In this document: positions 1,109-14,753 of the stretch, piece after piece
Layout: every line of letters begins with the position of its first letter
Position numbering within the stretch: the stretch's first letter is position 1
IMG/VR virus record: IMGVR_UViG_3300005882_000001
Location: 1 to 59,397 of that record
Source: a virus
Reading direction: 5' to 3' (one strand)
DNA: 59,397 bases
Notes under the pieces: generated by a model
Told to the model about the DNA's origin: nothing
Seen by the model: only the letters and a program-made list of their open reading frames with translations
The model's database searches: none
Translations under genes and position numbers: made by a program

Positions 1109-1135
1109 CGCCATTGACAATTCGGAGGAAATATT

Positions 1136-1348: not shown

Positions 1349-1419
1349 GGCCGCTTATCATTCTTTCTTTTTTAATCTTGTTGAAAATGTCGAACAATTC
1401 GAAAAATTGGAGAAATATT

Positions 1420-2163
1420 ATGACTAAGTTAACACTTGATGATTTACAGATTGACGCACAATTACGCCCAGTTACAAATGGCGAATTAGCAAAAGCCACC
1501 AACGAGGAATTAGCAGAGATTTTACTTGCTGAATCCGTTCAGTTTATTGCTGGCCGTAAACCCCAAGAGGGCGCATCGGCATCTGTCATCGGCGTTTATC
1601 AATTGGCAAGCGCCGCAGTACAGACATCAGCGTTTGAGGTTATTCGCGACCGTATCGTTCACTTGAATGATAAGATTGCGAAAGCCCGCCAATCAGGTAA
1701 TGACGAGAACATTCCGGCCTACCAGCGAGCAGTGATGTATTTGTTGAATTTTATCCGTCGTCTGCAATCGCAAAACGCTCGGGGTTGTTATTTCCTGAAA
1801 CGTTTAGCGGAACGTCGCGAAGAAGCCCGTGACCCACGTGAAGTCCGTACACAATATGACGGTTTTCGGTTTGTTGGCTTTGATGCTGAACAAATCACCG
1901 AAATCGACGACATGTTGTACGACCAGCTCACCAAAGGTTATGGCTTATTGTTGCAGCTTGCCGATAGCTGGACAGTACAGAACATGGGTTATTTACCTTA
2001 TGCCACTGTACAGATTGACGGTGAGTATCGTGACATTCATGACGCAAAAGCACTGGCTGATGCATTAGAGATGTCGATGCCGAACATGCCAACCGAAGCC
2101 GAGACGCTAGCCGCACTTGGCTTAGGTGGAGCGCCAGCAGCAAAAAGCGAAAAGGCTAAGTAA
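1420..2163 (+). CDS. Hypothetical protein (247 aa)
   Basis: The internal ATG at 1420 is preceded by GGAGAA and gives MTKLTLDDLQ... The upstream part of the track ORF (from 1336) overlaps the previous gene and looks non-coding. A terminator follows. Confidence 0.7.
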   Translation: MTKLTLDDLQIDAQLRPVTNGELAKATNEELAEILLAESVQFIAGRKPQEGASASVIGVYQLASAAVQTSAFEVIRDRIVHLNDKIAKARQSGNDENIPAYQRAVMYLLNFIRRLQSQNARGCYFLKRLAERREEARDPREVRTQYDGFRFVGFDAEQITEIDDMLYDQLTKGYGLLLQLADSWTVQNMGYLPYATVQIDGEYRDIHDAKALADALEMSMPNMPTEAETLAALGLGGAPAAKSEKAK

Positions 2164-2175
2164 GCTGCACCCCAC

Positions 2176-2217
2176 ACCCGCCCTGTTCTCACACCGAGGA
2201 TAGGGTGGGTTTTTTTA
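2176..2217 (+). terminator. Rho-independent terminator
   Basis: The stem acccgccct / agggtgggt is 9 bp with one G-U pair. The loop is 17 nt and is followed by T7. Confidence 0.7.
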
Positions 2218-2256
2218 TGCCAGATATACCCCGGTATCCACTGAAGGAATGTGCCC

Positions 2257-2436
2257 ATGGACTTATACAAAGTGTTTTTGTACTCCGACCAACCGCAGAA
2301 AGGTAACGCCAGCTGCGTGGTACGAGCGACCACAATTCAGGCCGCTGATTTATTGGCCCAGGCTATCGCATATAGCATGACGCAGATTGACCCAGACGAT
2401 GACACATGGTTTCACACCGTTGAAGCCGTCGAATAA
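2257..2436 (+). CDS. Hypothetical protein (59 aa)
   Basis: GAAGGA lies 7 nt before the ATG at 2257. The track start at 2251 is GTG. Confidence 0.55.
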   Translation: MDLYKVFLYSDQPQKGNASCVVRATTIQAADLLAQAIAYSMTQIDPDDDTWFHTVEAVE

Positions 2437-2455
2437 CACCTGTTCCCCGTTCCCT

Positions 2456-2499
2456 GCCCTTGGCGCTTGACCTCCGACGAGTGCCTTGGGTGGTTTTTT
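2456..2499 (+). terminator. Probable Rho-independent terminator
   Basis: gccctTggcgc ... gtgccTTgggt forms a stem with an internal TT/TT mismatch, followed by T6. Confidence 0.45.
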
Positions 2500-2683
2500 A
2501 ACGAATGTTATGTTTGTTAAATAAATGTGCGGAGTGAAAATTCATAGGGTAAATCCGCATTTGGCGGGTGGCTACAACAAACGACGAGTGGTGTCAATAG
2601 GTAAAAACTGCTTTTTGCCAATTTCAACTGAAATTTAACAATTGACGTGGGCTGTGGGCCGATTGCTCAGATTTGTTACATTG

Positions 2684-2698
2684 ACTGGTCTGACCAGT
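2684..2698. promoter_or_regulatory. Perfect 15-bp palindrome ACTGGTC-T-GACCAGT (operator candidate)
   Basis: Read directly from the sequence. It overlaps a TTGACT hexamer at 2681-2686. Confidence 0.5.
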
Positions 2699-2919
2699 GC
2701 AAAAAACCCAAGCCACTCAACGGGTGCAGAGGACATTCAACAATTTTTTTACATTTACTTGGAGTAACCCAGTTTAGTTTTTTTTTTAATATTACCTTTT
2801 TGTGTCTCATTTTTGAGACAGATTTAAATATTAAAAAATCATTATATAAGTATAAAAAACCACCAAAAGCCACTCAACCCCAGCCACACCAAGGGCTACA
2901 GGCCGATAACAAGCTGTAT

Positions 2920-2946
2920 TTGTCAAAAATATGAGAATGTTAATAA
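2920..2946 (+). promoter_or_regulatory. Candidate sigma70-like promoter
   Basis: TTGTCA (2920-2925), a 15-nt spacer, then TGtTAATAA as an extended -10 (2938-2946). It lies about 35 nt upstream of the 2983 gene. Confidence 0.3.
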
Positions 2947-2982
2947 AAAGTTATCAGTTACTAGGCCAAAAGGAGGGTAACA

Positions 2983-3237
2983 ATGAATAAATTCACGCAA
3001 GGCAAGTGGTCGGTAAAAGAGTACTCCAATGGAGATTTGGAGATGTACTGCACTGGTTATTCAGACGGTTGTATCATGAGTAACGAAACATACTACCCGT
3101 GGAACCCCAACAACGAGCATGATTGGTATTTATTCGCCACCGCAGGAACAACCGCCACCAAGCTAGCCGAAGCTGGTTATGATTCGGCAGCGTATAGCAA
3201 GGCGTTTAATTTGCTTAAACAGTGTCGGGGTGAGTGA
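2983..3237 (+). CDS. Hypothetical protein
   Basis: A strong RBS, AAAGGAGGG, lies 6 nt before the ATG. 84 aa. Confidence 0.8.
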   Translation: MNKFTQGKWSVKEYSNGDLEMYCTGYSDGCIMSNETYYPWNPNNEHDWYLFATAGTTATKLAEAGYDSAAYSKAFNLLKQCRGE

Positions 3238-3422
3238 TGGAATGTGTACATTGCGGTAACGATTTACCAGAAGATCCACACGACACAACTTTTTGCAATT
3301 ACAACAGCCCCCGTTATTCAGAGGGTACACATACAGGCAATATCTACCGATGCGAACATTGCGAAGAGGACACAATCGAGCTTGTTCAAGAAAATGGGAG
3401 GTTAGAATCATGGAGTTATTGA
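3237..3422 (+). CDS. Zinc-ribbon protein (CxxC...CxxC)
   Basis: The product is MECVHCGNDL...YRCEHCEEDT. The start makes a TGATG overlap with the upstream stop. Confidence 0.65.
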   Translation: MECVHCGNDLPEDPHDTTFCNYNSPRYSEGTHTGNIYRCEHCEEDTIELVQENGRLESWSY

Positions 3423-3637
3423 CTAACGAACAAATTGCAGAGTTGAAGCGGATTATTGAGCGTTTGCGTGATTTCGTATCAAGAAAACTAAAACACAACA
3501 CCAGTAAGGCGTTAGCGTATAAAGAAGCAAGCGCAGACAGTCACAATTTTCATGGTGGTTGGTCGAAAGGATACCATGAGGGCATTGTATCAGTATGTGA
3601 GGAAGTGCTGGACTTATTAAAAGGAGAATCCAAATGA
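3410..3637 (+). CDS. Hypothetical protein (75 aa)
   Basis: GGGAGG lies 8 nt before the ATG at 3410 and gives MELLTNEQIAELKRI... The longer track ORF from 3293 overlaps the previous gene. Confidence 0.65.
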   Translation: MELLTNEQIAELKRIIERLRDFVSRKLKHNTSKALAYKEASADSHNFHGGWSKGYHEGIVSVCEEVLDLLKGESK

Positions 3638-3963
3638 GTGATTTAACTAATAAGGCAATAGAAGTATCGCGAAGAATTTGTGAAATTGAAGAGCGGTTAG
3701 CGTGCCTTGATTTAACTGTACACGAAGCCGAGGATTTGCGCTATGAAAAAGCAGAACTAGAAGAATGGGACGAGGCGCTAAGTGCATACTTTAATGCTAG
3801 AAATAGTTGCGAACAACTCCAACAGCGCGTGGCGGAGCTTGAGAAAGAACGTGACGCACTGGCGGCACATGTCGAGCGTATTTACTCAATAGCCGAAAGC
3901 AAAAGTCATGGGATTGCTGACCTGCGCGCTGTTATTGGGCAACCACCCACAAAACAAAAATGA
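3634..3963 (+). CDS. Coiled-coil protein
   Basis: ATGA overlap with the upstream stop. The sequence is heptad-like and E/L/A-rich. Confidence 0.7.
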   Translation: MSDLTNKAIEVSRRICEIEERLACLDLTVHEAEDLRYEKAELEEWDEALSAYFNARNSCEQLQQRVAELEKERDALAAHVERIYSIAESKSHGIADLRAVIGQPPTKQK

Positions 3964-4166
3964 AAAATAACCCAGTAAAACGCGCTCTGCTCTTGTTCGA
4001 GTACCATAATACGTCACCTTATTACTTCAGGTACATCGCCTCTAGCCCCGTTTACTTGTTAAGCAACCTGGACAAAGAACTAATAGCACTATTAAACGCT
4101 GAAAACCTAATTCCCTTGCCATCCGTATACACACTTCTTATCGAATTCCTGATAAACGACACATGA
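3960..4166 (+). CDS. Small-paralog-array (SPA) family member, divergent first copy
   Basis: ATGA overlap. Central block LDKELIALLNAENLI and C-terminus YTLLIEFLINDT. Confidence 0.7.
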   Translation: MKNNPVKRALLLFEYHNTSPYYFRYIASSPVYLLSNLDKELIALLNAENLIPLPSVYTLLIEFLINDT

Positions 4167-4426
4167 CAATACCAGCTGATATCAACAACGCCTGTTTAAT
4201 GATGCAACCTAGCATGACCCTAGACACGCAACACTTGTCACAAGAAAGTATCGACCGGCACTTGATATCAGCACTCAACCACAGCACGAGCATTGAACCA
4301 GAACACGAACTATGGGTGTTTGAACGGGTATCAAAAAACACCCACTCCCGTTCGCCATTGTTCACTTACGCAAAGCAAACGTTGTATTTCCTATGGCAAG
4401 GTGCACTCTTCAATGAAAATAGCTGA
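4163..4426 (+). CDS. SPA family member, WQGALFNE subfamily
   Basis: ATGA overlap. Blocks ADINNACLMM, IDRHLISALNHS and LYFLWQGALFNENS. Confidence 0.8.
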   Translation: MTIPADINNACLMMQPSMTLDTQHLSQESIDRHLISALNHSTSIEPEHELWVFERVSKNTHSRSPLFTYAKQTLYFLWQGALFNENS

Positions 4427-4697
4427 TTTAACCTACGACACCGTAAACGCGTACGCTGTGCTAAAACTAGAGCAACTGACTGTATTAGATAACGACCTAC
4501 AAAAACCCCAAATCGACCGTGAATTAATTGACGCCCTTAGCGCAAAACAACTAATACTAGACAAAAAACACTTCATTTTTTGGATATTCGAGAAACTCGT
4601 AAAGGTCGGCAACGACTTGGAACACCACGCCGTGTTTGAAACCAAAACGCGGAATTTATATGTCCTCTGGCAAGGAGCTCTTTTCAATGAACGGTGA
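4413..4697 (+). CDS. SPA family member, WQGALFNE subfamily
   Basis: The ATG is embedded in the upstream ttcAATGAA. Blocks IDRELIDALSAKQLIL and LYVLWQGALFNER. The track ORF start at 4293 lies inside the previous gene. Confidence 0.8.
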   Translation: MKIADLTYDTVNAYAVLKLEQLTVLDNDLQKPQIDRELIDALSAKQLILDKKHFIFWIFEKLVKVGNDLEHHAVFETKTRNLYVLWQGALFNER

Positions 4698-4932
4698 CCT
4701 AAGAAATGCAATCGTCGCCACACGCCTATGCGACTTAATACCCGACGAGCGGCACTTAGCCGACAACGCCTTGCTAAGAGCACTCGACGCAAAACAATTA
4801 GTGATAGACCAAGGCCATTATTTCGGCTGGGTATTTATAAAACAAGGCAGATACGGAATACACCCGGTGTTCGACACTAAAACGCAGAATTTATATATCC
4901 TATGGCAAGGAGCTCTTTTTAATGAACAGTGA
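4687..4932 (+). CDS. SPA family member, WQGALFNE subfamily
   Basis: GGAG lies 9 nt before the ATG at 4687, and both sit inside the upstream WQGALFNE codons. Blocks DLRNAIVATR, ADNALLRALDAKQLVI and LYILWQGALFNEQ. Confidence 0.85.
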   Translation: MNGDLRNAIVATRLCDLIPDERHLADNALLRALDAKQLVIDQGHYFGWVFIKQGRYGIHPVFDTKTQNLYILWQGALFNEQ

Positions 4933-5179
4933 TATAAGAACTGCAATCGCTGTCTCCAACGCACATGGTTTGGCATTCAACAAGCAATATCAACATGCCG
5001 CCGACCGCACCTTGATAAAAGCACTCGACGCAAAACAAATAATACACCAAAGTTTCTATATTACCTGGTTCTTTATTAAAGAAACCACACTAGGCTTAGA
5101 CCCGGTATTTACCAGCATGCAGAATTTATACATCCTATGGCAAGGAGCACTCTTCAATGAACAAATATCGCATCAGTAA
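4922..5179 (+). CDS. SPA family member, WQGALFNE subfamily
   Basis: Blocks DIRTAIAVSN, ADRTLIKALDAKQII and LYILWQGALFNEQISHQ. It shares an 18-nt identity (gcactcgacgcaaaacaa) with the previous copy. Confidence 0.85.
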   Translation: MNSDIRTAIAVSNAHGLAFNKQYQHAADRTLIKALDAKQIIHQSFYITWFFIKETTLGLDPVFTSMQNLYILWQGALFNEQISHQ

Positions 5180-5888
5180 AAGAGAAGCGCATAAATTAGT
5201 ATTGCCATGTGGCACTATACTACGTCGAATAGTCGCTCTAAAAGAATTCAAACTGCAACCATACGGCACATGCATAGTCATAAAACCTGGTGACGTCGGC
5301 GGCTATGTCGAAACAACAAAGAACCTCGACCAACGGGGTAATTGTTGGATATTGAATAATGCAAAAGCCTATGGCCAAGCGTTTGTAACAAAAGACGCAG
5401 TGCTTATGGACTCAGCTGAAGTATTTGGCAAAGCCATTGTTACAGACCAAACGGTCATACGCAATGCAGCCAGAATATATGACACTGCTATAATTCGCGG
5501 CGAGTCGCAAATAACCGGGCCAAAAACCCAGGTCTATGGCAACGCGCGAATATGGATGTTAAAACTAAACCAGCTATATAACATTAAAGTATTCGGCAGA
5601 GCTAGAATAACCGATGGGACGCTGCCAGACTTTACCGATAGGGTAAACGTATTAGAAATATCCGAAGAACCCACAATAATAAGCACATTTCCATATACAG
5701 TGAGAATCACCGATAAGCACACCATAATCAGCTGTCAGACAGAAAAACATAGCTATTGGCTCAAAGCAAAGCCCAAAGATGTATCAGATAACCCAAGGAT
5801 TCAAAAGCTATGGAAACAACACGGCGATGTGGTTAAGCACTTTATCAAATATCACAAAAAATTGGTAAAAGATGCCGCGCAAAGATAA
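5157..5888 (+). CDS. Beta-helix repeat protein (hexapeptide or bactofilin-like repeats) embedded in the array
   Basis: Repeated small-hydrophobic pattern: NAKAYGQAFVTKDAVLMDSAEVFGKAIVTDQTVIRNAARIYDTAIIRGESQITGPKTQVYGNARI. Its RBS and ATG lie inside the upstream WQGALFNE codons. Confidence 0.7.
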   Translation: MNKYRISKREAHKLVLPCGTILRRIVALKEFKLQPYGTCIVIKPGDVGGYVETTKNLDQRGNCWILNNAKAYGQAFVTKDAVLMDSAEVFGKAIVTDQTVIRNAARIYDTAIIRGESQITGPKTQVYGNARIWMLKLNQLYNIKVFGRARITDGTLPDFTDRVNVLEISEEPTIISTFPYTVRITDKHTIISCQTEKHSYWLKAKPKDVSDNPRIQKLWKQHGDVVKHFIKYHKKLVKDAAQR

Positions 5889-6162
5889 CAGCCCCTATAT
5901 AATGCCCCTGTTGTGGTTTGAAGTATTCAAACAAAACCCAGATTATTTTACCAGAGTATCCATAGACTCACATAATCTGCGGGAACTTGACCAGGATATA
6001 ATAAGAATACTCAGCCGCCTGTTTTATAGCGAACGCAAAGTAATACTCGCTAAGCACTTTATAACACCACACGGCGAATATTACTTTTCCCTCAACGCAG
6101 TATTCACACAAATAACACACGACCTCTACATGGAGTACTTAATGAATGACCATGAACACTGA
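5872..6162 (+). CDS. SPA family member, LMNDD subfamily (divergent)
   Basis: Blocks LDQDIIRILSRLF and HDLYMEYLMNDHEH. The start is uncertain; 5902 is an alternative. Confidence 0.7.
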   Translation: MPRKDNSPYIMPLLWFEVFKQNPDYFTRVSIDSHNLRELDQDIIRILSRLFYSERKVILAKHFITPHGEYYFSLNAVFTQITHDLYMEYLMNDHEH

Positions 6163-6427
6163 CCTACAAGCCACTCGGGTAGTATTACGGGACGATATTC
6201 CATTCTTTAACGCAAAAAGACCATTTGACCCTGAAATTACCATAAGCCATTTCAATCAAAACATACTAAGAGTACTAGATTACGACTCAGCAGTGTTATA
6301 CCCCGACCCGCAGGAAAGTAACTCTATAAGGATATATCTCGAATCAGAATACCAGCGCAGTATAGTCTTCGCATTTAGCAACTCGCTGCTTGACCTATTT
6401 TATTATTTCTTAATGAACGACGATTGA
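6146..6427 (+). CDS. SPA family member, LMNDD subfamily
   Basis: Blocks TDLQATRVVL, FNQNILRVLDYDSAVL and LLDLFYYFLMNDD at the C-terminus. Confidence 0.85.
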   Translation: MTMNTDLQATRVVLRDDIPFFNAKRPFDPEITISHFNQNILRVLDYDSAVLYPDPQESNSIRIYLESEYQRSIVFAFSNSLLDLFYYFLMNDD

Positions 6428-6437
6428 TAAGCTGATT

Positions 6438-6728
6438 ATGGGTAATTTAATCGACATACACGCCGCAAAGCTCATGTTCACCGGCTCCTGGCTAAGAATA
6501 GAAAACCACAACAAAATGCAATATGCCAAAAAGCTAGATGACAGCATCATAGATTTATTGACCTTCAAAAAACTCATGATTTATAACATTGGTACTACCG
6601 TGGGAGAATTCGTAAAGGTAAGAGTTGTACACCCTGATGACCCTGATAAAAAACTACGTCACCCAATGTATGCATTTGACACCCCGCTCTATGACTTATT
6701 TTATTACTTCTTAATGGCGGACGACTAA
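6438..6728 (+). CDS. SPA family member, LMNDD subfamily
   Basis: Blocks IDIHAAKLMF, LDDSIIDLLTFKKLMI and LYDLFYYFLMADD. Confidence 0.85.
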   Translation: MGNLIDIHAAKLMFTGSWLRIENHNKMQYAKKLDDSIIDLLTFKKLMIYNIGTTVGEFVKVRVVHPDDPDKKLRHPMYAFDTPLYDLFYYFLMADD

Positions 6729-6994
6729 TGTTCAGAGAACTTTTATGCTTAGCAACCAGACAGCGTTATCATTACCGAGCACGCCTCGAGTATAGAACGC
6801 CTGATAACAAAATCTTAATGACCATGACTTTTACTTTACTCGTCAACAACCCAAAACACAGCGACGACCATCGCAAAATAAAAAAAGACATAGGCCCCGA
6901 GCTAATAGAAAAAATCACTCGGCACAGATTATGCAACGGTCACTTAGTTTATGAACCGATTGCTTACTTAGGGTTATTTAAAAAATCATGCTAA
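6728..6994 (+). CDS. Hypothetical protein (not an SPA member)
   Basis: TAATG overlap. 88 aa, basic, and lacking the family blocks. Confidence 0.6.
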   Translation: MFRELLCLATRQRYHYRARLEYRTPDNKILMTMTFTLLVNNPKHSDDHRKIKKDIGPELIEKITRHRLCNGHLVYEPIAYLGLFKKSC

Positions 6995-7278
6995 CTGTTG
7001 ATGTATACTCAGCCCTCGGCCTGCTCGACCGGATATATGAAGTTCCATTAGACCCGGACCCATGGCGTATAGAATTCATAAAAGAACAAATGAACGCTGA
7101 ATTCCTAGATTTACTTTACGCGGAGTCCTTAATACTAGTATACCGAAATCCCACTCACTACTATTACATGCGAGTAAATATCCAAGAAAAAGACCCCCAC
7201 ATCGAAGCGTCAACCAAATATGTGTTTACTAACCCCATCTTTGATGTGTTCTATTATTTCTTAATGAACGACGACTAA
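6988..7278 (+). CDS. SPA family member, LMNDD subfamily
   Basis: Blocks MNAEFLDLLYAESLIL and IFDVFYYFLMNDD. Confidence 0.85.
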   Translation: MLTVDVYSALGLLDRIYEVPLDPDPWRIEFIKEQMNAEFLDLLYAESLILVYRNPTHYYYMRVNIQEKDPHIEASTKYVFTNPIFDVFYYFLMNDD

Positions 7279-7291
7279 ACAGCGAAAAACC

Positions 7292-7552
7292 ATGAAACCC
7301 GATGATATATCTATAGCATGTGAATTGTTTGTATCATGCCCAGACCTGGACCAAGAACCACAAACAATAGACGACATGTTCAGAGATACTGTCAGTATCC
7401 TAAACCTAGGTAACGTGATACTAACACCAACCAAAGAAACTTATGGCTATTGTTTTTGGGCAATAGGCACCAACAAGCAGCAATGCAACACATATCTTTT
7501 TGATGATTTCGTTTATGACTTATTTTTCTATTTCTTAATGAACGACGAGTAG
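7292..7552 (+). CDS. SPA family member, LMNDD subfamily
   Basis: Blocks DDISIACELF, FRDTVSILNLGNVIL and VYDLFFYFLMNDE. Confidence 0.85.
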   Translation: MKPDDISIACELFVSCPDLDQEPQTIDDMFRDTVSILNLGNVILTPTKETYGYCFWAIGTNKQQCNTYLFDDFVYDLFFYFLMNDE

Positions 7553-7558
7553 CCCTCA

Positions 7559-7864
7559 TTGCTAAACGCAGACATAAGAACCACAGCCAGGTGCCTTAAT
7601 CAAAAAGGCGTTTACGATTTCATACAAGTCATGGCATCTGAAATGGAAGTCTTTAAACCAAAAATAGACGACCAAATAAACCGTCAGGTAATACGGTTAC
7701 TCAACTATAAACAAATAACCATAAGAAACCTACCTGGAGCATCGTTAACTTCGTTATATCTCAGAAGTTCATTTGAAAAAACAAATGAAACACCAGAGTA
7801 TCTATTTAACTCAACAATCTATGACTTGATGTTTTTCTTTTTATTAAATGACGATTGCCCATGA
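7559..7864 (+). CDS. SPA family member, LMNDD subfamily (TTG start)
   Basis: The TTG start gives LNADIRTTARCL, which parallels MLNAGDINRV of the copy at 8368. Blocks INRQVIRLLNYKQITI and IYDLMFFFLLNDDCP. Confidence 0.75.
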   Translation: MLNADIRTTARCLNQKGVYDFIQVMASEMEVFKPKIDDQINRQVIRLLNYKQITIRNLPGASLTSLYLRSSFEKTNETPEYLFNSTIYDLMFFFLLNDDCP

Positions 7865-8112
7865 AACCTGCTGACATCCACATAATAAAAGAGATATTTA
7901 CCAATCGCTCAAAAATAGACATAAATCAGGGGGCGATAAATGAGATGCTTTATGACATTGTCTATATATTAAATCTAAAAAGCATCGAACTGGTAACAAG
8001 CAGGCTAACTTACGGTTACTGTTTCCGCCTGCAAAGAGATAAAAACAACTACTTTCTTTTTAATGATTTGGCCCAAGACCTATTTTTCTACTTCTTAATG
8101 GCGGATGACTAG
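7861..8112 (+). CDS. SPA family member, LMNDD subfamily
   Basis: ATGA overlap at 7861. Blocks ADIHIIKEIF, LYDIVYILNLKSIEL and AQDLFFYFLMADD. Confidence 0.85.
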   Translation: MKPADIHIIKEIFTNRSKIDINQGAINEMLYDIVYILNLKSIELVTSRLTYGYCFRLQRDKNNYFLFNDLAQDLFFYFLMADD

Positions 8113-8115
8113 CCA

Positions 8116-8364
8116 ATGGCATTCAACGACATAAAAATTTCAATAGAAGTATTAAGCCTCTATCAACGCGGATTCATATTACCGGTAGATGCACCCAAAG
8201 ACCTTGATTCAGATATCGTCGCCTTACTTGACCAAGAAATACTAAGAATATCCACCCATCCTACTAGCTGTGGCATAGCCATAACCACCAGGTATACAAT
8301 AGGCTATGTCTTTCAGATAATTGAAAACGACCTATATTGCTTATTTCTAATGATGGACGACTAA
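8116..8364 (+). CDS. SPA family member, LMNDD subfamily
   Basis: Blocks NDIKISIEVL, LDSDIVALLDQEILRI and ENDLYCLFLMMDD. Confidence 0.85.
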   Translation: MAFNDIKISIEVLSLYQRGFILPVDAPKDLDSDIVALLDQEILRISTHPTSCGIAITTRYTIGYVFQIIENDLYCLFLMMDD

Positions 8365-8367
8365 TAC

Positions 8368-8601
8368 ATGCTAAATGCAGGGGACATAAATCGAGTTGCA
8401 TTCCTCCTTCGCTATTCATTATTTTTTACTCCATTAAATATTAATGAAATACGGCGCATAGACCAAAGCCTAATTCGCTGGTTACGCCGCGAAAGACTAA
8501 TAGTTCCAAAAGACCACCACCGCCCTGTGCCAGATGGCATTATAGTAACCAAAACGCAGGTATTATGGCTTCAGTATGTCAACGAGCTAATCCATGAATA
8601 A
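8368..8601 (+). CDS. SPA family member (NELI-type C-terminus)
   Basis: Blocks GDINRVAFLL, IDQSLIRWLRRERLIV and LWLQYVNELIHE. Confidence 0.8.
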   Translation: MLNAGDINRVAFLLRYSLFFTPLNINEIRRIDQSLIRWLRRERLIVPKDHHRPVPDGIIVTKTQVLWLQYVNELIHE

Positions 8602-8849
8602 CACCGCTTATACCCAGGAAATAAGAGACGTACTACGGTTACTAAATAGCAAAAAACATGTCATCACCCACACTGAACGAAAATATCGACGAATGCTTAA
8701 TAAAAGCGCTCGACCATAAGCAGCTAACATTTAACCTTAACCGCCATTTTTGGTTTGCTTATACCCACAAACAGTCAGAAAGACCAACACCGGTATTTTT
8801 ATTTATCATCACAGCCTTAAGGTTTACCTATTATGCAAATGTTGATTAA
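8594..8849 (+). pseudogene. SPA family member split by a frameshift at an A6 run
   Basis: The ATG at 8594 gives MNNTAYTQEIRDVLRLLNSKK, which matches the family N-terminal block, up to the A6 run at 8651-8656. The family central block (NIDECLIKALDHKQLTF) and C-terminus then continue in the +1 frame, which is the track ORF 8658-8849. One A fewer in the run would restore a single ORF of about 84 aa. Confidence 0.6.
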
Positions 8850-9063
8850 AAGCATTAAAGTATTCGCAATTATACAAACCGTTCTATTTATGTTTGTTGG
8901 CCTAGGCTTCATCGCGAACGAAGTGGTCTTTAGCATTGACCCAGAAATACTGCCTTCAAAATCAGCATTCAACCTGTATTTCTTTTTAGGCATTATCAGT
9001 TACGGAGTGCTAACGGCAATTGCAACAACAATCCGGACCGTATATCGTTTCGCATTAAAGTAA
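8833..9063 (+). CDS. Two-TM membrane protein embedded in the array
   Basis: The hydrophobic segments are VFAIIQTVLFMFVGLGFIA and LYFFLGIISYGVLTAIATTI. Confidence 0.7.
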   Translation: MQMLIKSIKVFAIIQTVLFMFVGLGFIANEVVFSIDPEILPSKSAFNLYFFLGIISYGVLTAIATTIRTVYRFALK

Positions 9064-9075
9064 GAGCCTGGTTAA

Positions 9076-9324
9076 ATGAGACACGACACACAAATGACGG
9101 TGAGGGTACTGAGCCTAAAAAGAATCCCAGACTTCGACTATGCGAGCTACATGATACCAACCAAAAAACAAATTGATATAATCATAGTAAGAGCCCTAGA
9201 CTCTAATTCATTGGTAGTGGACTATAACCGACAGTTCGGGATAATTGTCAGCTTTAACGAACCATTATTTAGCTACCGAATAAATCACATCGCGTTCTTA
9301 TTCTATTTAAATGAATTAATATGA
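9076..9324 (+). CDS. SPA family member (NELI-type C-terminus)
   Basis: Blocks TQMTVRVLSL, IDIIIVRALDSNSLVV and IAFLFYLNELI. Confidence 0.8.
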   Translation: MRHDTQMTVRVLSLKRIPDFDYASYMIPTKKQIDIIIVRALDSNSLVVDYNRQFGIIVSFNEPLFSYRINHIAFLFYLNELI

Positions 9325-9488
9325 TAGACGTTCATCTAATGATTAGTGCTGACTTAATTGCGCGAAAAACAAGCCTAAAAAATGTCAACGAAGTATTGGC
9401 CATTCTCGCTTGGTTCGAAGACCAATCACATAGTTTCGCGCACCTTTTCCTAAAACACAGTTACTTATCCCATGCTAAAAATTTCTAG
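9321..9488 (+). CDS. Small hypothetical ORF (55 aa)
   Basis: ATGA overlap with the upstream stop. It fills an otherwise empty 150-bp gap and is below the track cut-off. Confidence 0.4.
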   Translation: MIDVHLMISADLIARKTSLKNVNEVLAILAWFEDQSHSFAHLFLKHSYLSHAKNF

Positions 9489-9723
9489 TACACCGTACAG
9501 CAGAGAAAACTCGACAATTATCGCTGCTACCATCCTGCACACATATAAAAAAGCCCCCCATCTCTATAATGGGAATACGATATTAAATCAGTGCAGACCT
9601 GAAAGAATAGATGAACTTCTTCGGTTTATAATACAAAGCGAAACTGCGTTTGATGCGTTTTGGTTATCTCAAAACTTAATGATTCAATTCATAACGCAGA
9701 CAGAAATCTATGATACCCAATGA
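9472..9723 (+). CDS. Hypothetical protein, possibly a very divergent SPA member
   Basis: 83 aa. RIDELLRFIIQSE loosely resembles the central block. Confidence 0.55.
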   Translation: MLKISSTPYSRENSTIIAATILHTYKKAPHLYNGNTILNQCRPERIDELLRFIIQSETAFDAFWLSQNLMIQFITQTEIYDTQ

Positions 9724-9949
9724 AATTCGCCTCGTTAATAAAATAATAGAAGGCCATGCGTTCTACAATTTACTTGGCCAAGACAAACGCGCATACGAAA
9801 AATTGACTATGAAAGAAATAGCGCTTGGCAAACCGAAAAGCGAATACCTAATTACAGCCAACGGCATGCTTTGCAAAAAACAAATAGTCTTCGCAGCCTT
9901 TTTCGCCGACCTTTATTTCTTATGGTATAAGTACGCAGAAGATTTGTAG
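9710..9949 (+). CDS. SPA family member (divergent)
   Basis: Blocks NEIRLVNKII and FAAFFADLYFLWYKYAEDL. Confidence 0.7.
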   Translation: MIPNEIRLVNKIIEGHAFYNLLGQDKRAYEKLTMKEIALGKPKSEYLITANGMLCKKQIVFAAFFADLYFLWYKYAEDL

Positions 9950-9956
9950 GTACACC

Positions 9957-10247
9957 ATGTCAGACCAACTAAAATTACCCCGCTATGACGTGCTTTGGGC
10001 GAGCATAGTACTTGACGATAAAAATCTGTTAGATGACCTAGAAAAAATACAGGAATACACAGAAATAAAACTAAACCGAATAAGACAGCTACTCTTAGAA
10101 GGGTGTTTTTTAAGGTTATCAAAATACAACGGTCTTTATCTAAAGAAAGGTAACCGAATACGCGAACTACACCAATGGGCGGTAGACCTGTTTGTTGTCT
10201 TTATTTATGAAGAAAAAAATATACCATGGCGATGCAAACTCCGATAA
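9957..10247 (+). CDS. SPA family member, YD[VI]LWA pair
   Basis: Blocks LPRYDVLWASIVLDD and AVDLFVVFIYEE, followed by a short extension that overlaps the next start. Confidence 0.75.
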   Translation: MSDQLKLPRYDVLWASIVLDDKNLLDDLEKIQEYTEIKLNRIRQLLLEGCFLRLSKYNGLYLKKGNRIRELHQWAVDLFVVFIYEEKNIPWRCKLR

Positions 10248-10459
10248 CTACACCCGAACTTAAGTATGACATCCTCTGGGCAGATATAATCCTCGAATTG
10301 CCATTCTTAAACATCACACCACGGTTTCGTCATGCGGTTAACATTTCAGTAAAACCACTAAAAAGACCGGTGTACATAACCAAAGCAGGTATTACAGGTT
10401 TTAAAACCAGCGACTATTTAATCGACTTATTAGTTCTTTGGAAAATCAAAAATGACTAA
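10226..10459 (+). CDS. SPA family member, YD[VI]LWA pair
   Basis: Blocks ELKYDILWADIILE and LIDLLVLWKIKND. Confidence 0.75.
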   Translation: MAMQTPITTPELKYDILWADIILELPFLNITPRFRHAVNISVKPLKRPVYITKAGITGFKTSDYLIDLLVLWKIKND

Positions 10460-10679
10460 ACCAGACATAAAAATGGCGGCGGTTACATTATCCAGTGAAC
10501 ACGCCGGCTACTGCCTAGAAAATTCAACCATGGTCAAAGCCCAAAGATATGCGGCAAAATCCCTACCAGACAACCATGATATAAATTTCGAGGAGAATGA
10601 CTTAACCGACGCACGGATTATCGTTTTTGGAAACATTATCCTTGATTTAGCTTTCGTGTTCTATCTCAATGAAGAATGA
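10452..10679 (+). CDS. SPA family member
   Basis: Blocks PDIKMAAVTLS and NIILDLAFVFYLNEE. Confidence 0.8.
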   Translation: MTKPDIKMAAVTLSSEHAGYCLENSTMVKAQRYAAKSLPDNHDINFEENDLTDARIIVFGNIILDLAFVFYLNEE

Positions 10680-10884
10680 TATCTTTCACGCGGCCAAGGT
10701 AGCTTCATTAATAAGCGTATCTAGAATACATATTAACGTGTGCCACAGTGAGATAATAGCAAAAAACATCCTGCTCGATGACGTTATGTTTACCAAAAAC
10801 GCTGTTGTACTGAAAAACAACATAATGCCGATATTCTTTTCCCCTGTATCTGATGTTATCTTTGCAGGTATGCACTATGCATGA
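10669..10884 (+). CDS. SPA family member (divergent C-terminus)
   Basis: Blocks NDIFHAAKVAS and VSDVIFAGMHYA. Confidence 0.65.
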   Translation: MKNDIFHAAKVASLISVSRIHINVCHSEIIAKNILLDDVMFTKNAVVLKNNIMPIFFSPVSDVIFAGMHYA

Positions 10885-11119
10885 TATCTCCTACGCATGC
10901 CAAATGATAATGCACGAGGAAACAGGATTGATATGCCGCCGCTGGTGCAAATACCATGTCCGTATAGTTAAAAAAAGAATTGAGCAACACAAATTAACCT
11001 GGTCCAATGTTGTAATGGGTAGACACGGAATACATGATGAAAAACAAGCTTCTTTCATAAACCAGCTATCCTATACGGACCTAAATATGCTTTGGGAATT
11101 GTACAATGCTACCGATTAG
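10877..11119 (+). CDS. SPA family member
   Basis: The ATG at 10877 overlaps the upstream stop by 8 nt. Blocks HDISYACQMIM and YTDLNMLWELYNATD. Confidence 0.7.
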   Translation: MHDISYACQMIMHEETGLICRRWCKYHVRIVKKRIEQHKLTWSNVVMGRHGIHDEKQASFINQLSYTDLNMLWELYNATD

Positions 11120-11351
11120 GCAAGGTCTTGAAGAACTATCGTTTATGCTGGGGTATTACCACCAAAGCCTAATTTTCCCAACACCAGATTCAATAAGCCA
11201 ACTAAAACTATCACAACGACTATCCCCACACAGACTATGGGTTATTCAAAAAGATTTAGTCGAAGGATTGTTAAATGACTGTCCATCACCAAGGGAAATG
11301 TGGGAATATAGGACCATGTTACATATATGGTGTTGGTACGCAGATGGCTAG
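11106..11351 (+). CDS. SPA family member (divergent)
   Basis: Blocks LEELSFMLGY and RTMLHIWCWYADG. Confidence 0.6.
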   Translation: MLPIRQGLEELSFMLGYYHQSLIFPTPDSISQLKLSQRLSPHRLWVIQKDLVEGLLNDCPSPREMWEYRTMLHIWCWYADG

Positions 11352-11532
11352 TATCCCAAAAATAACGTTACGGATTATATGCGCGATTCTTAGTGCAGAC
11401 ACGCTATACGTATTTGGAAAACCATTACGGTTTTTTATCGTAAAAAAAGGGAAACAGTACATCTACCCCGTCTTTTCGTCACTAGGCAACGAATTATATG
11501 CAGAATTTGTTAGACAAGACCGAAGCAGCTGA
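11344..11532 (+). CDS. SPA family member (short, divergent)
   Basis: The ATG at 11344 overlaps the upstream stop. Blocks ITLRIICAIL and GNELYAEFVRQD. Confidence 0.6.
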   Translation: MASIPKITLRIICAILSADTLYVFGKPLRFFIVKKGKQYIYPVFSSLGNELYAEFVRQDRSS

Positions 11533-11533
11533 T

Positions 11534-11746
11534 ATGCAAATAATGCTGTTATTCAAACAACATGTTGATTGCGAAGATTTTTTCAGCGAAAACAACCCCG
11601 GTATATTCCATAAGCAAGTCTTGCAAAAAGAGGAAAGCGTAGAAGTGGAACACATCATACGCACAAAGAGTAAAATGAAAAAAGACCTGGAACTATATTT
11701 ATTAACCCATACATTCTTTTTGCATGACCAAGGACTAATGAAATGA
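11534..11746 (+). CDS. SPA-related subfamily FFLQEQGL
   Basis: Blocks CEDFFSENNPGIF and THTFFLHDQGLMK. The AAGGA RBS of the next gene lies inside the QGL codons. Confidence 0.75.
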   Translation: MQIMLLFKQHVDCEDFFSENNPGIFHKQVLQKEESVEVEHIIRTKSKMKKDLELYLLTHTFFLHDQGLMK

Positions 11747-12006
11747 GCCAGCTACCACGCGAGCTTAGTGGACAAATTTATGCCATGTTCTCAGGGCTTG
11801 TAAATGTACATGGGTTTTTTAATAACGAAAACCCAAGAGTATATGCCGAGAAAGAGATTCTTGCGGATATCATCTCAGAAACATGTATTCTCTTATCAAA
11901 AAATGGACCTAAGCTGCACCATAAAAACATCACCGGCGGATTCTTCGTATTAAGAAGCCTTGTATACCACACATTCTTTCTGCAAGAACAAGGGTTAATA
12001 AAATGA
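11743..12006 (+). CDS. SPA-related subfamily FFLQEQGL
   Basis: ATGA overlap. Blocks VHGFFNNENPRVY and YHTFFLQEQGLIK. Confidence 0.8.
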   Translation: MSQLPRELSGQIYAMFSGLVNVHGFFNNENPRVYAEKEILADIISETCILLSKNGPKLHHKNITGGFFVLRSLVYHTFFLQEQGLIK

Positions 12007-12245
12007 CAAGCCTAGATAACCAAATCTATGCTGTATTTAGTGACCGCATGAAAACAGAAGATTTTTTTGATATTGACTTACCAAATACGCTATACACCAG
12101 AAAAAGGCTACAAAAAATATCACTCGACGAGATTCATTTTATTTTTACGCTAAGCAAACACATGCCTGGTGATTTTATATATGGCCTAAAAGAGCTAACT
12201 ATATACAACACGTTTCTTTTGCAAGAACAAGGACTTATGCTATGA
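12003..12245 (+). CDS. SPA-related subfamily FFLQEQGL
   Basis: ATGA overlap. Blocks TEDFFDIDLPNTLY and IYNTFLLQEQGLML. Confidence 0.8.
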   Translation: MTSLDNQIYAVFSDRMKTEDFFDIDLPNTLYTRKRLQKISLDEIHFIFTLSKHMPGDFIYGLKELTIYNTFLLQEQGLML

Positions 12246-12520
12246 AAAAATTCATCATTTCACTTGTTATAGTTTTTGCTTTGCTAATTATACCAACTAC
12301 ATTAACCCAAGAAACCTATTCGCTAATATGCAAAGATTCAGTAACCTATCAGCAAACGTTCAAAGCAGAGAACCTAGAAGCTGAGCCAAAGCAAATTGAC
12401 AAAAACAGTTACCGCTGGACCATGAACAAAGTACTTACTGGAACCTATAACTTGGACGAGTCAGAATACTGTGTTATAAACAAGCACAGGATTCCACGAG
12501 ATATACCACCATGGCGATAA
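12242..12520 (+). CDS. Secreted or membrane-anchored small protein
   Basis: The N-terminal signal-like segment is MKKFIISLVIVFALLIIPTTLT. ATGA overlap. Confidence 0.7.
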   Translation: MKKFIISLVIVFALLIIPTTLTQETYSLICKDSVTYQQTFKAENLEAEPKQIDKNSYRWTMNKVLTGTYNLDESEYCVINKHRIPRDIPPWR

Positions 12521-12663
12521 AAACAGAACAAACCAAAGACAACCGTATCCTAATTGTAATTCCACGAGATACTCCACCTCATGAAAAGCACAAAGCGTAC
12601 AACGAAATCCGTCGGCAAAACCCGAAAGCGAAAGCAGTGGACTTCAAGTACAGTGACGAGTGA
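12511..12663 (+). CDS. Possible 50-aa ORF
   Basis: The ATG overlaps the upstream stop. It contains IPRDTPP, which echoes IPRDIPP at the end of the upstream protein. It competes with the 12581 ORF for the same DNA. Confidence 0.3.
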   Translation: MAIKTEQTKDNRILIVIPRDTPPHEKHKAYNEIRRQNPKAKAVDFKYSDE

Positions 12664-12853
12664 CCTTTGGCATTTGTCCATCCGCACTAGGCAAGCCCTA
12701 TTCCGCAGTGGTATATTCACCGTAGCCCAAGTCAAAGGGCACCGTAATATACGTGCAGTACCGGGAATAGGGGAAAAGCTTTATGCTGAAATTGAAGAAA
12801 AAATATTTGCCCGAGGATATACTTCGCGCGGCAATCATCCTAGGAACCGGTAA
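12581..12853 (+). CDS. Small protein with an RNA polymerase alpha C-terminal-domain-like helix-hairpin-helix
   Basis: LSIRTRQALFRSGIFTVAQVKGHRNIRAVPGIGEKLYAEIEEKI follows the alpha-CTD pattern LSvRs.N.L...gI.tv.dL......l..v.n.G.KSl.EI. The N-terminus is basic. The start is uncertain. Confidence 0.55.
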   Translation: MKSTKRTTKSVGKTRKRKQWTSSTVTSDLWHLSIRTRQALFRSGIFTVAQVKGHRNIRAVPGIGEKLYAEIEEKIFARGYTSRGNHPRNR

Positions 12854-12865
12854 GACCCCGTACAT

Positions 12866-13237
12866 ATGGCTAAACACAAACCAAACCAACCACCACCGGC
12901 TCAAAGTGGTGAGCCTGTACAATCTGTACAAAGCCCATGTGCCCAAGCATTGTTAATTCTAGCAGCGCAAAGAGAGCTACCTAGAGTAAAACAATATTTC
13001 CGTAGTTTAATTAAACGCCATCCATCAATGTTCTGGTGGGGAGTAAACAATCTCCTAGAACCGGACGGGCTTTTATTTGAGCGTTATAGAATCGCATCAA
13101 TAACAAGTCACCCGGTTAGAACACGATACATGAGACTTCATCATTCGTGGGACGCAGAATTTATGTTTGAAAAACTGTGGATGGTTTATGAGCTTCAGAG
13201 TAGAAACCTTAAAAATAAGCCCGTTGTTAGTCCTTGA
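12866..13237 (+). CDS. Hypothetical protein
   Basis: 123-aa ORF with its ATG 13 nt after the upstream stop. Confidence 0.65.
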   Translation: MAKHKPNQPPPAQSGEPVQSVQSPCAQALLILAAQRELPRVKQYFRSLIKRHPSMFWWGVNNLLEPDGLLFERYRIASITSHPVRTRYMRLHHSWDAEFMFEKLWMVYELQSRNLKNKPVVSP

Positions 13238-13460
13238 TTTTGATTGTGCAACCCAAAAACGCGCCATTCGGTTATCACACCAACCGCAACAACTCAAAAA
13301 AATCATGGGCATCAACAAAAAGTCCAATTTGTACCAGGACGACATAACAATAGCGGCATATCTTATAGGATTAAAAAATATATTTGAATTTCCGCGATAT
13401 GTTTATATGAACCCAGCGGCGATATTACTAGCTTTATTTCTATTACATAATGAAATTTAA
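13188..13460 (+). CDS. Hypothetical protein, possible outlying SPA-like member
   Basis: The C-terminus AAILLALFLLHNEI resembles the ...FLFYLNELI tails. The start is ambiguous: ATG at 13188 or 13305, and the track start at 13167 is TTG. Confidence 0.45.
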   Translation: MSFRVETLKISPLLVLDFDCATQKRAIRLSHQPQQLKKIMGINKKSNLYQDDITIAAYLIGLKNIFEFPRYVYMNPAAILLALFLLHNEI

Positions 13461-13968
13461 CCCAAACAACTTAGCACCAAAAAAGTGTCTGCAACAAACC
13501 ATGTCTTTTATCAGACGTTGCGGCTATTACGACCCGGCACGCTATTATTCATGGATGTATTTAAAGATTTTAATGTTTTTTAAATATGGACCTATAACGT
13601 TCAGTAAACCTGATATAAACCAACTGGAGAGCACCACCATGCCTATCACTCGCATTGAATCAAACCCGGCTAACATTAAAGCACTACGCAATCAAATCGC
13701 AGCGGCTAAACTGTTAGGTGAAACCACCACACAAGTAGAAGACGAACAGCTAAAAGGCAAGATTATTCTTGATGACTATTGGTTGTTTGTTATCCGTGAT
13801 TACCTACGTGAAGAAGGTATTGATAACATCGTACTTCCCGAAGAAGCCGCGTTCTTTGTCACAGCAACAGCACAAAATGTGCCTATTGCTGTATACGCCG
13901 CCGCTAGTTTCAAAACCGTGCTTGCTGTAGATAATCTTGACCGTATCTTGGCTGAGCGCAAAAAGTAA
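13450..13968 (+). CDS. Hypothetical protein
   Basis: 172-aa ORF. The in-frame ATG at 13639, preceded by GGAGAG, is an alternative start. Confidence 0.6.
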   Translation: MKFNPNNLAPKKCLQQTMSFIRRCGYYDPARYYSWMYLKILMFFKYGPITFSKPDINQLESTTMPITRIESNPANIKALRNQIAAAKLLGETTTQVEDEQLKGKIILDDYWLFVIRDYLREEGIDNIVLPEEAAFFVTATAQNVPIAVYAAASFKTVLAVDNLDRILAERKK

Positions 13969-13983
13969 AACCCGGAGTCCACA

Positions 13984-14751: not shown

Positions 14752-14753
14752 CC

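Follow-up and report, generated by a model that had tools for sequence, protein, structure and literature searches.

We analysed a 59,397-nucleotide stretch of viral DNA (IMG/VR record IMGVR_UViG_3300005882_000001, positions 1 to 59,397; hereafter the window, to which all coordinates refer). Its plus strand carries, at 3960-12245, an unbroken run of 32 small open reading frames (ORFs) that overlap by 1-23 nucleotides or are separated by gaps of at most 13 nucleotides. Seventeen of them between 3960 and 10679, co-directional and including one frameshifted copy, can be recognised as homologues by sequence and profile comparison. Our results support with high confidence an evolutionary and structural description of the array as a tandemly amplified, selected, lineage-specific viral gene family that evolves by birth and death. 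The ORF map agrees with the original prediction, which was made from the sequence alone, in that the genes are small, co-directional and overlapping or abutting at the positions it gave. The array also takes up one seventh of the genome as proposed (8.3 of 59.3 kb), the genome being complete by virtue of a 99-nucleotide repeat.

All-versus-all BLASTP among the array ORFs returned 25 pairs at E<1e-3, versus none in each of 30 residue-shuffled sets. The matches form three groups: A (genes starting at 4163, 4413, 4687 and 4922, with 8658 and 9076 attached), B (6146, 6438, 6988, 7292, 7559 and 7855, to which iterated profile hidden Markov models (HMMs) add 8116 and 5872) and C (11498, 11743 and 12003). 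Profile-profile alignment with hhalign joins A to B over the full length of the proteins (75%, E 2.6e-5, 75 columns), and control ORFs from the array region reach at most 0.8%. The 17 homologues start at 3960, 4163, 4413, 4687, 4922, 5872, 6146, 6438, 6988, 7292, 7559, 7855, 8116, 8368, 8594/8658, 9076 and 10452; together with their orthologues in a close relative, they make up a pooled profile of 38 sequences (CORE). HMMs of the conserved blocks have no match outside the array among 666 six-frame ORFs. Amino acid identity between paralogues is 25-55%, and the family accounts for about 8-14% of the 59 kb. Two or three further partial members are probable, namely 11344-11532 together with 9710 and 13305-13460, the latter two being only possible.

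The original prediction had counted about 23 clear members plus three of a related subfamily. This is too many, since the profile-profile and block-HMM tests support 17. The ORFs at 9957, 10226, 10669, 10853, 11106 and 13167 and the trio at 11498-12245 score at most 3.4% against the family in hhalign, indistinguishable from controls. Joining the distal ORFs (9957-12245 and 13167) to the family was accordingly rejected: against A, B, the pooled 38-sequence profile and the block HMMs, they stay at control or background level. In some of these non-assigned ORFs, D-I-x-x-A occurs towards the N-terminus or aromatic residues cluster at the C-terminus, in the correct order, which makes them possible rather than demonstrated members. 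The three motif blocks that had been described are all present in the alignments, and the spatial clusters lie where they were placed (four WQGALFNE genes at 4163-5179, a YD[VI]LWA pair and three FFLQEQGL-type genes). The pair and the trio are unsupported as family members, with hhalign against CORE at control level. Of the eight or nine F[YF]YFLM[NA]D[DE] genes expected at 5872-8364, eight subfamily B members are indeed there, while the strict motif occurs in five.

The tails of groups A and C both contain "QG" because both encode the ribosome-binding site and start codon of the next gene, and not because the proteins are homologous. In subfamily A, the codons of W-Q-G-A-L-F-N-E (tggCAAGGAGctcttttcaATGaa) hold the Shine-Dalgarno (SD) sequence and the ATG of the following gene, and the Q-E-Q-G-L codons of the 11498-12245 trio likewise hold the SD sequence and ATG of the next gene. 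Such junctions, with AAGGAG or AAGGA as the SD sequence, lie at 4380-4426, 4650-4697, 4885-4932, 5120-5179 and 11720-12245. The tail similarity is thus no evidence for membership of the trio. Translation signals thus dictate part of these tail motifs and, more generally, where the genes of an operon are tightly packed, the next ribosome-binding site can confound C-terminal "motifs".

A close relative is represented by three Logan contigs of run SRR29444286, which have 79-90% nucleotide identity to the window and cover 1867-2953 and 3959-5870 (L002), about 6390-11101 (L001) and 11313-13475 (L030). The array ORFs shared with this relative are open in both genomes, the frameshifted copy excepted, and the Nei-Gojobori ratio of non-synonymous to synonymous substitution (dN/dS) is 0.13-0.63 for 14 orthologue pairs of the family. 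Both observations indicate that these are real, selected coding genes. The single frameshifted copy had been predicted; it carries a 5-nucleotide deletion at an A-run when compared with the relative's intact 84-amino-acid gene (L001:2474-2728).

Selection is unevenly distributed along the proteins. Pooled over orthologue pairs, dN/dS is 0.10 in the C-terminal block, at a synonymous divergence (dS) of 0.57 that is the highest of any block, and 0.42, 0.39, 0.65 and 0.42 in the N block, linker, central block and beta region, respectively. Paralogue comparisons are saturated at the synonymous sites of the C block (proportion of synonymous differences, pS, 0.82-0.87), and the proportion of non-synonymous differences is lowest there. 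The lowest dN/dS at the highest dS shows that conservation of the C-terminus is imposed on the protein and not on a DNA junction or by gene conversion. An effect at the DNA level was rejected as the source of this conservation because synonymous sites are saturated there, which also removes the case, raised at the outset as one that would overturn the family, that the similarity is confined to nucleotide-level junctions. Purifying selection acts on every copy; it constrains the C-terminal helix with its acidic tip very strongly and is relaxed elsewhere, in the central block as well as in the loop and beta region, the latter being variable in length and charge. Of the proposed design of constant termini around a variable middle, the constant C-terminus stands, under protein-level selection; the middle is not uniformly variable, as its central I-D-x-x-L-I-x-x-L block is conserved.

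Comparison with the relative also shows copies being gained, lost and shuffled. In the relative, the 4687 and 4922 cassettes (the last two of the four A genes) are in reverse order, and the 4922 cassette shows 94% nucleotide identity between the two phages (dS 0.11) versus about 79% in the flanks, which points to a recent exchange of this cassette. The relative has an extra 6438-like gene, 56% identical, directly upstream of its 6438 orthologue; the two-transmembrane gene 8833-9063, the 10669 gene and the block 2954-3958 are found in the window only. This last block, 1 kb with three or four genes, includes a 62-amino-acid ORF with two CxxC pairs (3234-3422) and a coiled-coil-like ORF of 109 amino acids; in the relative, L002 joins 2953 straight to 3959. 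The endpoints of the 10669 indel fall in a shared ATGAAnAATGAyATCT, which codes for the M-x-N-D-I N-terminus, and the best-conserved DNA repeats of the array are its gene junctions (repeat families D1-D4 and D7), which would serve as recombination substrates. The family evidently grows, shrinks and is shuffled by unequal recombination between its conserved ends. The repeated local duplication and divergence anticipated by the original prediction is borne out by the clustered subfamilies and by the relative's extra copy, swapped cassette and whole-gene indels. The array thus shows what characterises a tandem multigene family: at least three adjacent co-oriented homologues, a content that differs between relatives, and selected copies with one frameshift only.

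The family had been put forward as an unrecognised one, and we found no match in Pfam, PHROG, NCBIfam, PADLOC, PDB or BFVD and no homologue outside the lineage. Profile HMMs of Pfam-A, PHROGs v4, NCBIfam and PADLOC-DB gave best E values of 0.003-0.08, from single members and each to a different unrelated model. A profile search of PDB sequences (hmmsearch) with the family gave a best E of 1, and tblastn of one member against 50,697 phage records gave no match. In a word-indexed search of 5.8 billion proteins, only the source contig and the Logan contigs of SRR29444286 match; an exhaustive hmmsearch of 1.84 billion cluster representatives gave 15 hits, all from the source phage or that relative. 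Scans of JGI metagenome contigs and IMG/VR with a pattern from the B-only alignment returned 199 and 584 chance stretches, respectively, and no relative. The FFLQEQGL trio is likewise restricted to the source phage and its relative. The family is a lineage-restricted orphan that has apparently not been described before.

Arrays of the same family were also sought in the nearest phages and rejected: Pseudomonas phage KPP25 has no paralogues in the region, and Aeromonas phage phiA008 has an unrelated set only. This set, at 4529-7151 of phiA008 (L032), consists of three paralogues of its own (BLASTP 2e-12 and 4e-5), so that duplication on a small scale may recur in this region across the wider phage group.

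The members are predicted to be soluble alpha/beta proteins of 62-101 amino acids. An AlphaFold2 (AF2) model of the 6988-7278 product, built on the 17 paralogues, has a mean predicted local distance difference test score (pLDDT) of 72.5 and an H-H-E-E-E-H (alpha-alpha-beta-beta-beta-alpha) topology. Foldseek with this model, whose confidence is moderate, found nothing better than E 0.66 in PDB and 0.094 in BFVD, with query-normalised TM-scores of at most 0.38. The scaffold consists of three conserved blocks, loops of variable length and a near-invariant hydrophobic C-terminal helix with an acidic tip. The N block (M-x3-D-I-x2-A) is part of a predicted domain helix. The C-terminal helix and tip follow F-x5-D-L-F-Y-Y-F-L-M-N-D-D and variants; the helix is wholly hydrophobic save for one Asp (for example IFDVFYYFLM), AF2 packs it into the domain, and its extreme C-terminal placement and acidic end are retained in 17 of 17 members. 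Because the proteins are soluble without transmembrane segments and their charge varies widely (net charge -11 to +3, isoelectric point (pI) 4.1-10.0), a uniform set of DNA mimics or of membrane proteins was ruled out. An AF2 run on the 11498-12245 trio, testing for a shared fold, was uninformative (pLDDT 46).

An SD-like sequence precedes 10 of the 32 array genes, versus 22 of 30 genes elsewhere in the genome, and most array starts overlap or abut the preceding stop. Sigma-70 promoter-like and terminator-like sites in the region show no excess over shuffled sequences. No phage RNA polymerase was found in a scan restricted to the large proteins, and no tRNA or Rfam family lies in or near the array. 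With no gaps and few SD sequences, the simplest reading is that the array is likely expressed as one polycistronic transcript of the host RNA polymerase, translated by coupling or re-initiation. At 2176-2210 on the plus strand, right after the gene 1336-2163, there is a strong intrinsic-terminator-like hairpin (15-bp stem with 8 GC pairs, followed by a T-run), so that transcription of the array would occur by read-through or from a promoter within 2211-3960.

What might such an array do? A conserved scaffold, variable loops, relaxed constraint on the body, and gain, loss and shuffling of copies match the pattern of viral host-interaction multigene families. Reasoning from this pattern, we give close to an even chance to the possibility that the array is a panel of binders that share one scaffold and serve host interaction or counter-defence. 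The original prediction had speculated along similar lines, with a host-takeover, anti-defence or poly-immunity-like role and a C-terminal peptide that would dock to one shared partner. The copies would be specificity variants of this scaffold, probably made before or alongside the replication proteins, and each would bind a different host target stoichiometrically, in the most plausible case a variant of a defence protein or of another host protein. As for the invariant C-terminal helix, it would be either a folding or oligomerisation core or a common docking element.

It is tempting to extend this to a repertoire on a new fold, although we regard the full version as unlikely. Here, the copies would differ in the host defence or housekeeping protein that they recognise through a fast-evolving helix-loop and beta surface, the shared C-terminal helix would plug into a common hub or drive mixed oligomers of paralogues, and the copies would be re-assorted between co-circulating phages by recombination at gene ends.

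Several observations weigh against a panel of binders. About one third of the region (9321-9723, 9957-10459 and 10669-12245) is without demonstrable family membership. dN/dS never exceeds 1, and positive diversifying selection is undemonstrated in a comparison of two genomes only, with paralogue comparisons saturated. The structural model, built from a shallow paralogue alignment, is of moderate confidence. The hydrophobic C-terminal helix may be only a structural folding core or oligomerisation helix, which would void the idea of a common docking peptide. No promoter was identified for the array, and its early timing is drawn solely from its position upstream on the replication strand.

One possible alternative, which we consider quite unlikely, is that the proteins hijack a single host hub such as the sliding clamp or an AAA+ protease (ClpX or Lon, for example), with the C-terminal helix and acidic tip docked in a hydrophobic groove of the hub and the body recruiting targets or blocking the hub itself. 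Bacterial SspB-type adaptors and poxvirus ankyrin/F-box proteins operate as hub adaptors, and the C block is the most constrained part of the family (omega, that is dN/dS, 0.10), with terminal position and acidic end kept in all 17 members. The Q-G-A-L-F of subfamily A would in addition fit the bacterial clamp-binding pentapeptide consensus Q-L-[SD]-L-F at Q1, L4 and F5. However, QGALF is confined to the four A members and Q-x-x-L-F is missing from the 13 others, and the codons of QGALF also encode the AAGGAG and the next ATG, which is sufficient for its conservation in subfamily A. Moreover, the predicted packing of the helix into the domain leaves no free tail.

A second alternative, very unlikely in our view, is that the members are packaged and injected like the internal proteins of T4, the constant terminal peptide being a virion-targeting signal and the variable bodies disarming defences at entry. 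The T-even Ip proteins have the same architecture, with a constant terminal signal and variable bodies, several per genome and each blocking a different GmrSD variant (PMC12373910). Internal-virion and ejection functions also form a large module in the phage (phrog_511 and a 2512-amino-acid virion protein). The array, however, lies on the strand of the replication genes, far from and opposite to the structural module, and shows no sequence sign of late expression. Its constant element, at the C-terminus and hydrophobic, differs from the N-terminal Ip signal, and no prohead protease was found among the structural proteins scanned, which are a subset of the structural ORFs.

A tandem set of small paralogues whose surfaces have diversified also recalls the orphan immunity arrays near polymorphic toxin loci, and the array might in principle be a poly-immunity or antitoxin panel that neutralises a toxin family. 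We consider this highly improbable: no toxin-like ORF lies in or near 1-15000 and no large polymorphic gene in or beside the array, whose neighbours are small ORFans and a beta-solenoid protein widespread in phages, no member matches an immunity, toxin-antitoxin or defence model in PADLOC or Pfam, and the array sits in the genome of a lytic-type phage rather than in a bacterial locus. Finally, the notion that the ORFs are fortuitous or decaying duplicates around a nucleotide-level junction or coupling element, or products of recent gene conversion, draws on the junction repeats D1-D4 and D7, the SD and ATG encoded in the A and C tails and the one frameshifted copy, but it is largely refuted and hardly credible, given that homology spans the full protein length, the remaining ORFs stay intact in either genome at a dN/dS below 1, and the C block combines the highest synonymous divergence (dS 0.57; pS 0.82-0.87) with the lowest non-synonymous one.

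Small phage genomes are thought to face strong economy pressure, and 17 or more diverged orphan copies, about one tenth of the genome, under purifying selection imply a strong and probably multi-target demand, as would arise from the diversity of host defences. What is unusual here is the scale, 17 or more old diverged copies in a 59-kb podophage, together with the complete lack of homologues elsewhere. If the copies are inhibitors or adaptors, they would form a ready natural series of specificity variants on a new scaffold of about 90 residues with one invariant helix, useful for discovering defence systems or host hubs, and a clear phage example of birth-and-death evolution with cassette exchange.

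Gene by gene, all on the plus strand, the array opens with a divergent member at 3960-4166 (68 amino acids, C-terminus LIEFLINDT), which aligns full length with subfamily B (hhalign 79%, E 1.5e-5), was hit in the exhaustive HMM scan (P0020) and has an orthologue in L002 with dN/dS 0.46. Subfamily A follows. The gene at 4163-4426 (87 amino acids, with the WQGALFNE tail) matches the other A members at 1e-8 to 2e-11 in BLASTP and has dN/dS 0.44. That at 4413-4697 (94 amino acids; dN/dS 0.41) matches the 4687 gene at 8e-20 and starts at the ATG at 4413, rather than at a TTG upstream at 4293. The 4687-4932 gene (81 amino acids) is preceded by an AAGGAG within the QGALF codons of the gene before it and is 77% identical to L002:2062-2328, with a different gene order there. 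The fourth, 4922-5179 (85 amino acids), is the one with dS 0.11 and a swapped order in the relative.

The interruptions of the family by non-members had been correctly picked out, and the first is the gene at 5157-5888, which codes for a basic beta-solenoid (beta-helix) protein of 243 amino acids (pI 9.7) that matches phrog_5070 and phrog_7964, both function-unknown families. Its homologues are scattered over unrelated phages of Firmicutes, Bacteroides, Vibrio and Aeromonas as well as Acidovorax phage AP1, and they carry varied depositor annotations (LpxA-like, hexapeptide-repeat, bactofilin-like). At a comparable site, KPP25 encodes a pentapeptide-repeat protein.

Subfamily B begins with a divergent member at 5872-6162 (96 amino acids, tail YMEYLMNDHEH), recovered at HMM iteration 2 (E 5e-4) and as P0018 in the exhaustive scan. 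The 6146-6427 gene (93 amino acids, FYYFLMNDD) is supported by BLASTP, HMM and scan hit P0011, and 6438-6728 (96 amino acids; dN/dS 0.17) by BLASTP. Between this gene and the next B member lies a basic non-member ORF of 88 amino acids (6728-6994), with hhalign of at most 0.3%, which is kept in the relative with dN/dS 0.43. The product of 6988-7278 (96 amino acids) is the protein used for the AF2 model. Next come 7292-7552 (86 amino acids; BLASTP 8e-21 against the 7855 gene; dN/dS 0.63) and 7559-7864 (101 amino acids, TTG start; BLASTP, HMM and scan hit P0013; dN/dS 0.56). The 7855-8112 gene encodes 83-85 amino acids, depending on another ATG at 7861 (BLASTP, P0012; dN/dS 0.13), and 8116-8364 (82 amino acids, tail LFLMMDD) was found at HMM iteration 0 (E 1e-3) and has dN/dS 0.22.

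Downstream of subfamily B, a basic member at 8368-8601 (77 amino acids, tail YVNELIHE) aligns with subfamily A (hhalign 67%; P0010) and has dN/dS 0.42. The frameshifted member occupies 8594-8849, split into the ORFs 8594-8719 and 8658-8849, and reaches 95% against subfamily A in hhalign. The next gene, 8833-9063, encodes a non-member of 76 amino acids with two transmembrane segments (maximum 19-residue Kyte-Doolittle window 2.39) and is absent from the relative. The member at 9076-9324 (82 amino acids, tail FLFYLNELI) matches the 4687 gene at 4e-4 and the 8658 ORF at 1.6e-5 in BLASTP, aligns full length with the 10452 gene (hhalign 68%) and was recovered as P0007. Two small non-members, 9321-9488 and 9472-9723, reach at most 0.8% in hhalign and are kept in the relative with dN/dS 0.78 and 0.55. 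The possible member at 9710-9949 (79 amino acids) resembles the family in its C-terminal block (FFADLYFLWYKYAEDL) and nowhere else; hhalign gives 24% over 15 columns against CORE and 21% against the 10452 gene, and its block-HMM score is at background.

In the ORF pair 9957-10247 and 10226-10459, the common part is only the 14-residue N-terminal YD[VI]LWA motif (hhalign to each other 59% over 14 columns, against CORE at most 1.4%), and membership is unsupported. The last full member, at 10452-10679 (75 amino acids, tail LAFVFYLNEE), is assigned through its 68% full-length alignment with the 9076 gene, and its orthologue is scan hit P0019. Three ORFs outside the family follow (10669-10884, 10877-11119 and 11106-11351; hhalign at most 0.6%), the first two of which start with M-x-(N)-D-I-x-x-A. 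The probable truncated member at 11344-11532 (62 amino acids) has the central and C blocks without the N-terminal helix and aligns with CORE over 51 co-linear columns (hhalign 38%, E 3e-4); it is the short form of ORF 11275, and a start at 11344 gives the array-typical -8 overlap. The array ends with the separate three-gene family with FFLQEQGL tails at 11498-11746, 11743-12006 and 12003-12245 (mutual BLASTP 1e-5 to 2e-8), for which hhalign against CORE is at most 3.2%.

Directly after the array, 12242-12520 (plus strand) encodes a protein of 92 amino acids with an N-terminal signal-peptide-like hydrophobic segment (MKKFIISLVIVFALLIIPTT); it is kept in the relative, and its product may be secreted or membrane-anchored. 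Farther on, 13305-13460 within ORF 13167-13460 is a possible mini-member, with an N-type motif DDITIAAYL followed by the C-type motif YVYMNPAAILLALFLLHNEI, and it is kept in the relative at L030:1876-2148. The original prediction had named a possible outlier at 13188-13460; the order of motifs fits the family there, but hhalign (3.4%) stays at control level.

The window ends in an exact 99-nucleotide direct repeat (1-99 equals 59299-59397), which joins both ends and closes the contig into a complete phage genome of 59,298 bp, circular or circularly permuted. The genes for terminase, portal, major head, internal-virion and tail-fibre proteins lie on the minus strand at 31.9-59.2 kb, and the plus strand carries those for DNA polymerase, a primase-like protein, helicase and exonuclease. 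The capsid protein is about 52% identical to those of the closest isolates, Pseudomonas phages KPP25 and phiR18 (genus Kochitakasuvirus), 48% to that of phiA008 and 45% to that of Acidovorax phage AP1; the closest IMG/VR contigs reach about 57%. The source is a KPP25-like podophage. Neither the array nor 20 kb of the genome matched any of the 50,697 phage records in Megablast searches. The tail fibre is weakly similar to fibres of Vibrio, Escherichia, Aeromonas and Klebsiella phages, which suggests a gammaproteobacterial host.

On the genome map, the array follows the first plus-strand gene (1336-2163) and precedes the replication genes, whose strand it shares. Its GC content is 0.38, versus 0.42-0.50 in the remaining genome. 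A homologue of the gene 1336-2163 occurs in phiA008 (24.5% identity, E 3e-6), with no match in KPP25; the primase-like replication gene has a homologue in KPP25 only, of these two phages. The equivalent regions of both are filled with unrelated small ORFans. Judged by this gene content, the site of the array is a lineage-variable (hypervariable) accessory region. A 3.5-kb stretch, 11519-15006, is identical to one end of a separate 10.4-kb JGI contig of sample 3300005086, which terminates within the array. Between the accessory region and the replication genes, 15891-18228 (plus strand) encodes an ATPase (phrog_1297) and then a DUF2201 putative metallopeptidase with a VWA-like domain. On the minus strand, the gene for the 2512-amino-acid virion protein (39770-47311) encodes a DprA-like DNA-recombination-mediator domain (phrog_768, residues 1448-1611) and virion-structural C-terminal domains, and has a 96-nucleotide tandem duplication at 46028-46213.

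Among known systems, by sequence or fold, the family belongs to none of the T-even Ip, AcrID1 or eukaryotic-virus families, and the likeness lies in arrangement. Of the T-even proteins Ip1, Ip2 and Ip3, each T4 Ip blocks a different variant of the GmrSD defence family (PMC12373910). Like the array, the Ip loci encode several small proteins per genome with a short constant terminal sequence and variable bodies, and they are polymorphic among close relatives. The Ip proteins are non-essential, with bodies otherwise unrelated or variable, and carry an N-terminal capsid-targeting signal; they number about three and are packaged and injected. The array, in contrast, has a C-terminal hydrophobic helix, homologous bodies and 17 or more copies upstream of the replication genes, away from the structural module. 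No T4-type N-terminal capsid-targeting sequence was found in it, the N block being part of a predicted domain helix, nor any prohead protease to cut one among the structural proteins scanned, and it has no sequence or fold similarity to the Ip proteins.

The AcrID1 clusters of rudiviruses (SIRV1, SIRV2 and SIRV3) are similar in that a small viral anti-defence protein family has been amplified into neighbouring diverged paralogues: of the 35 homologues known, 26 are concentrated in four rudivirus genomes, and pairwise identity falls to 7% (PMC11065993). A solved structure of AcrID1 is reported (PMC7689449). These are genes of archaeal viruses, however, mostly monocistronic and each with its own conserved early promoter, whereas the array is tightly coupled, operon-like and without a repeated promoter. 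AcrID1 is an anti-CRISPR protein, and our family is likened to it by arrangement alone; neither sequence profile nor Foldseek matched the family to it in PDB. Closer at hand, KPP25 ORF025-059 and the first ~21 kb of the phiA008 plus strand hold, at the same position and on the same strand, small hypothetical genes that are not shared between lineages. The genes of the KPP25 region are all mutually unrelated, phiA008 has its one unrelated three-member set, and neither contains the array family.

A further parallel is with the multigene families or "genomic accordions" of host-interaction genes in large eukaryotic DNA viruses, such as MGF110/360/505 of African swine fever virus (ASFV), the poxvirus ankyrin/PRANC families and K3L amplification; segmental amplification of tifA has reportedly been seen in evolved T4. 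The array shares with the eukaryotic-virus families tandem duplication and divergence, copy-number differences between strains and recombination at repeats. Those accordion cases involve genomes of at least 170 kb or transient laboratory amplification of identical units, whereas the array is an old, diverged family stably kept in a 59-kb podophage. If its copies do form a repertoire on one fold, the array would be a bacterial-virus counterpart, in a 59-kb genome, of the poxvirus Ank/PRANC or ASFV MGF families.

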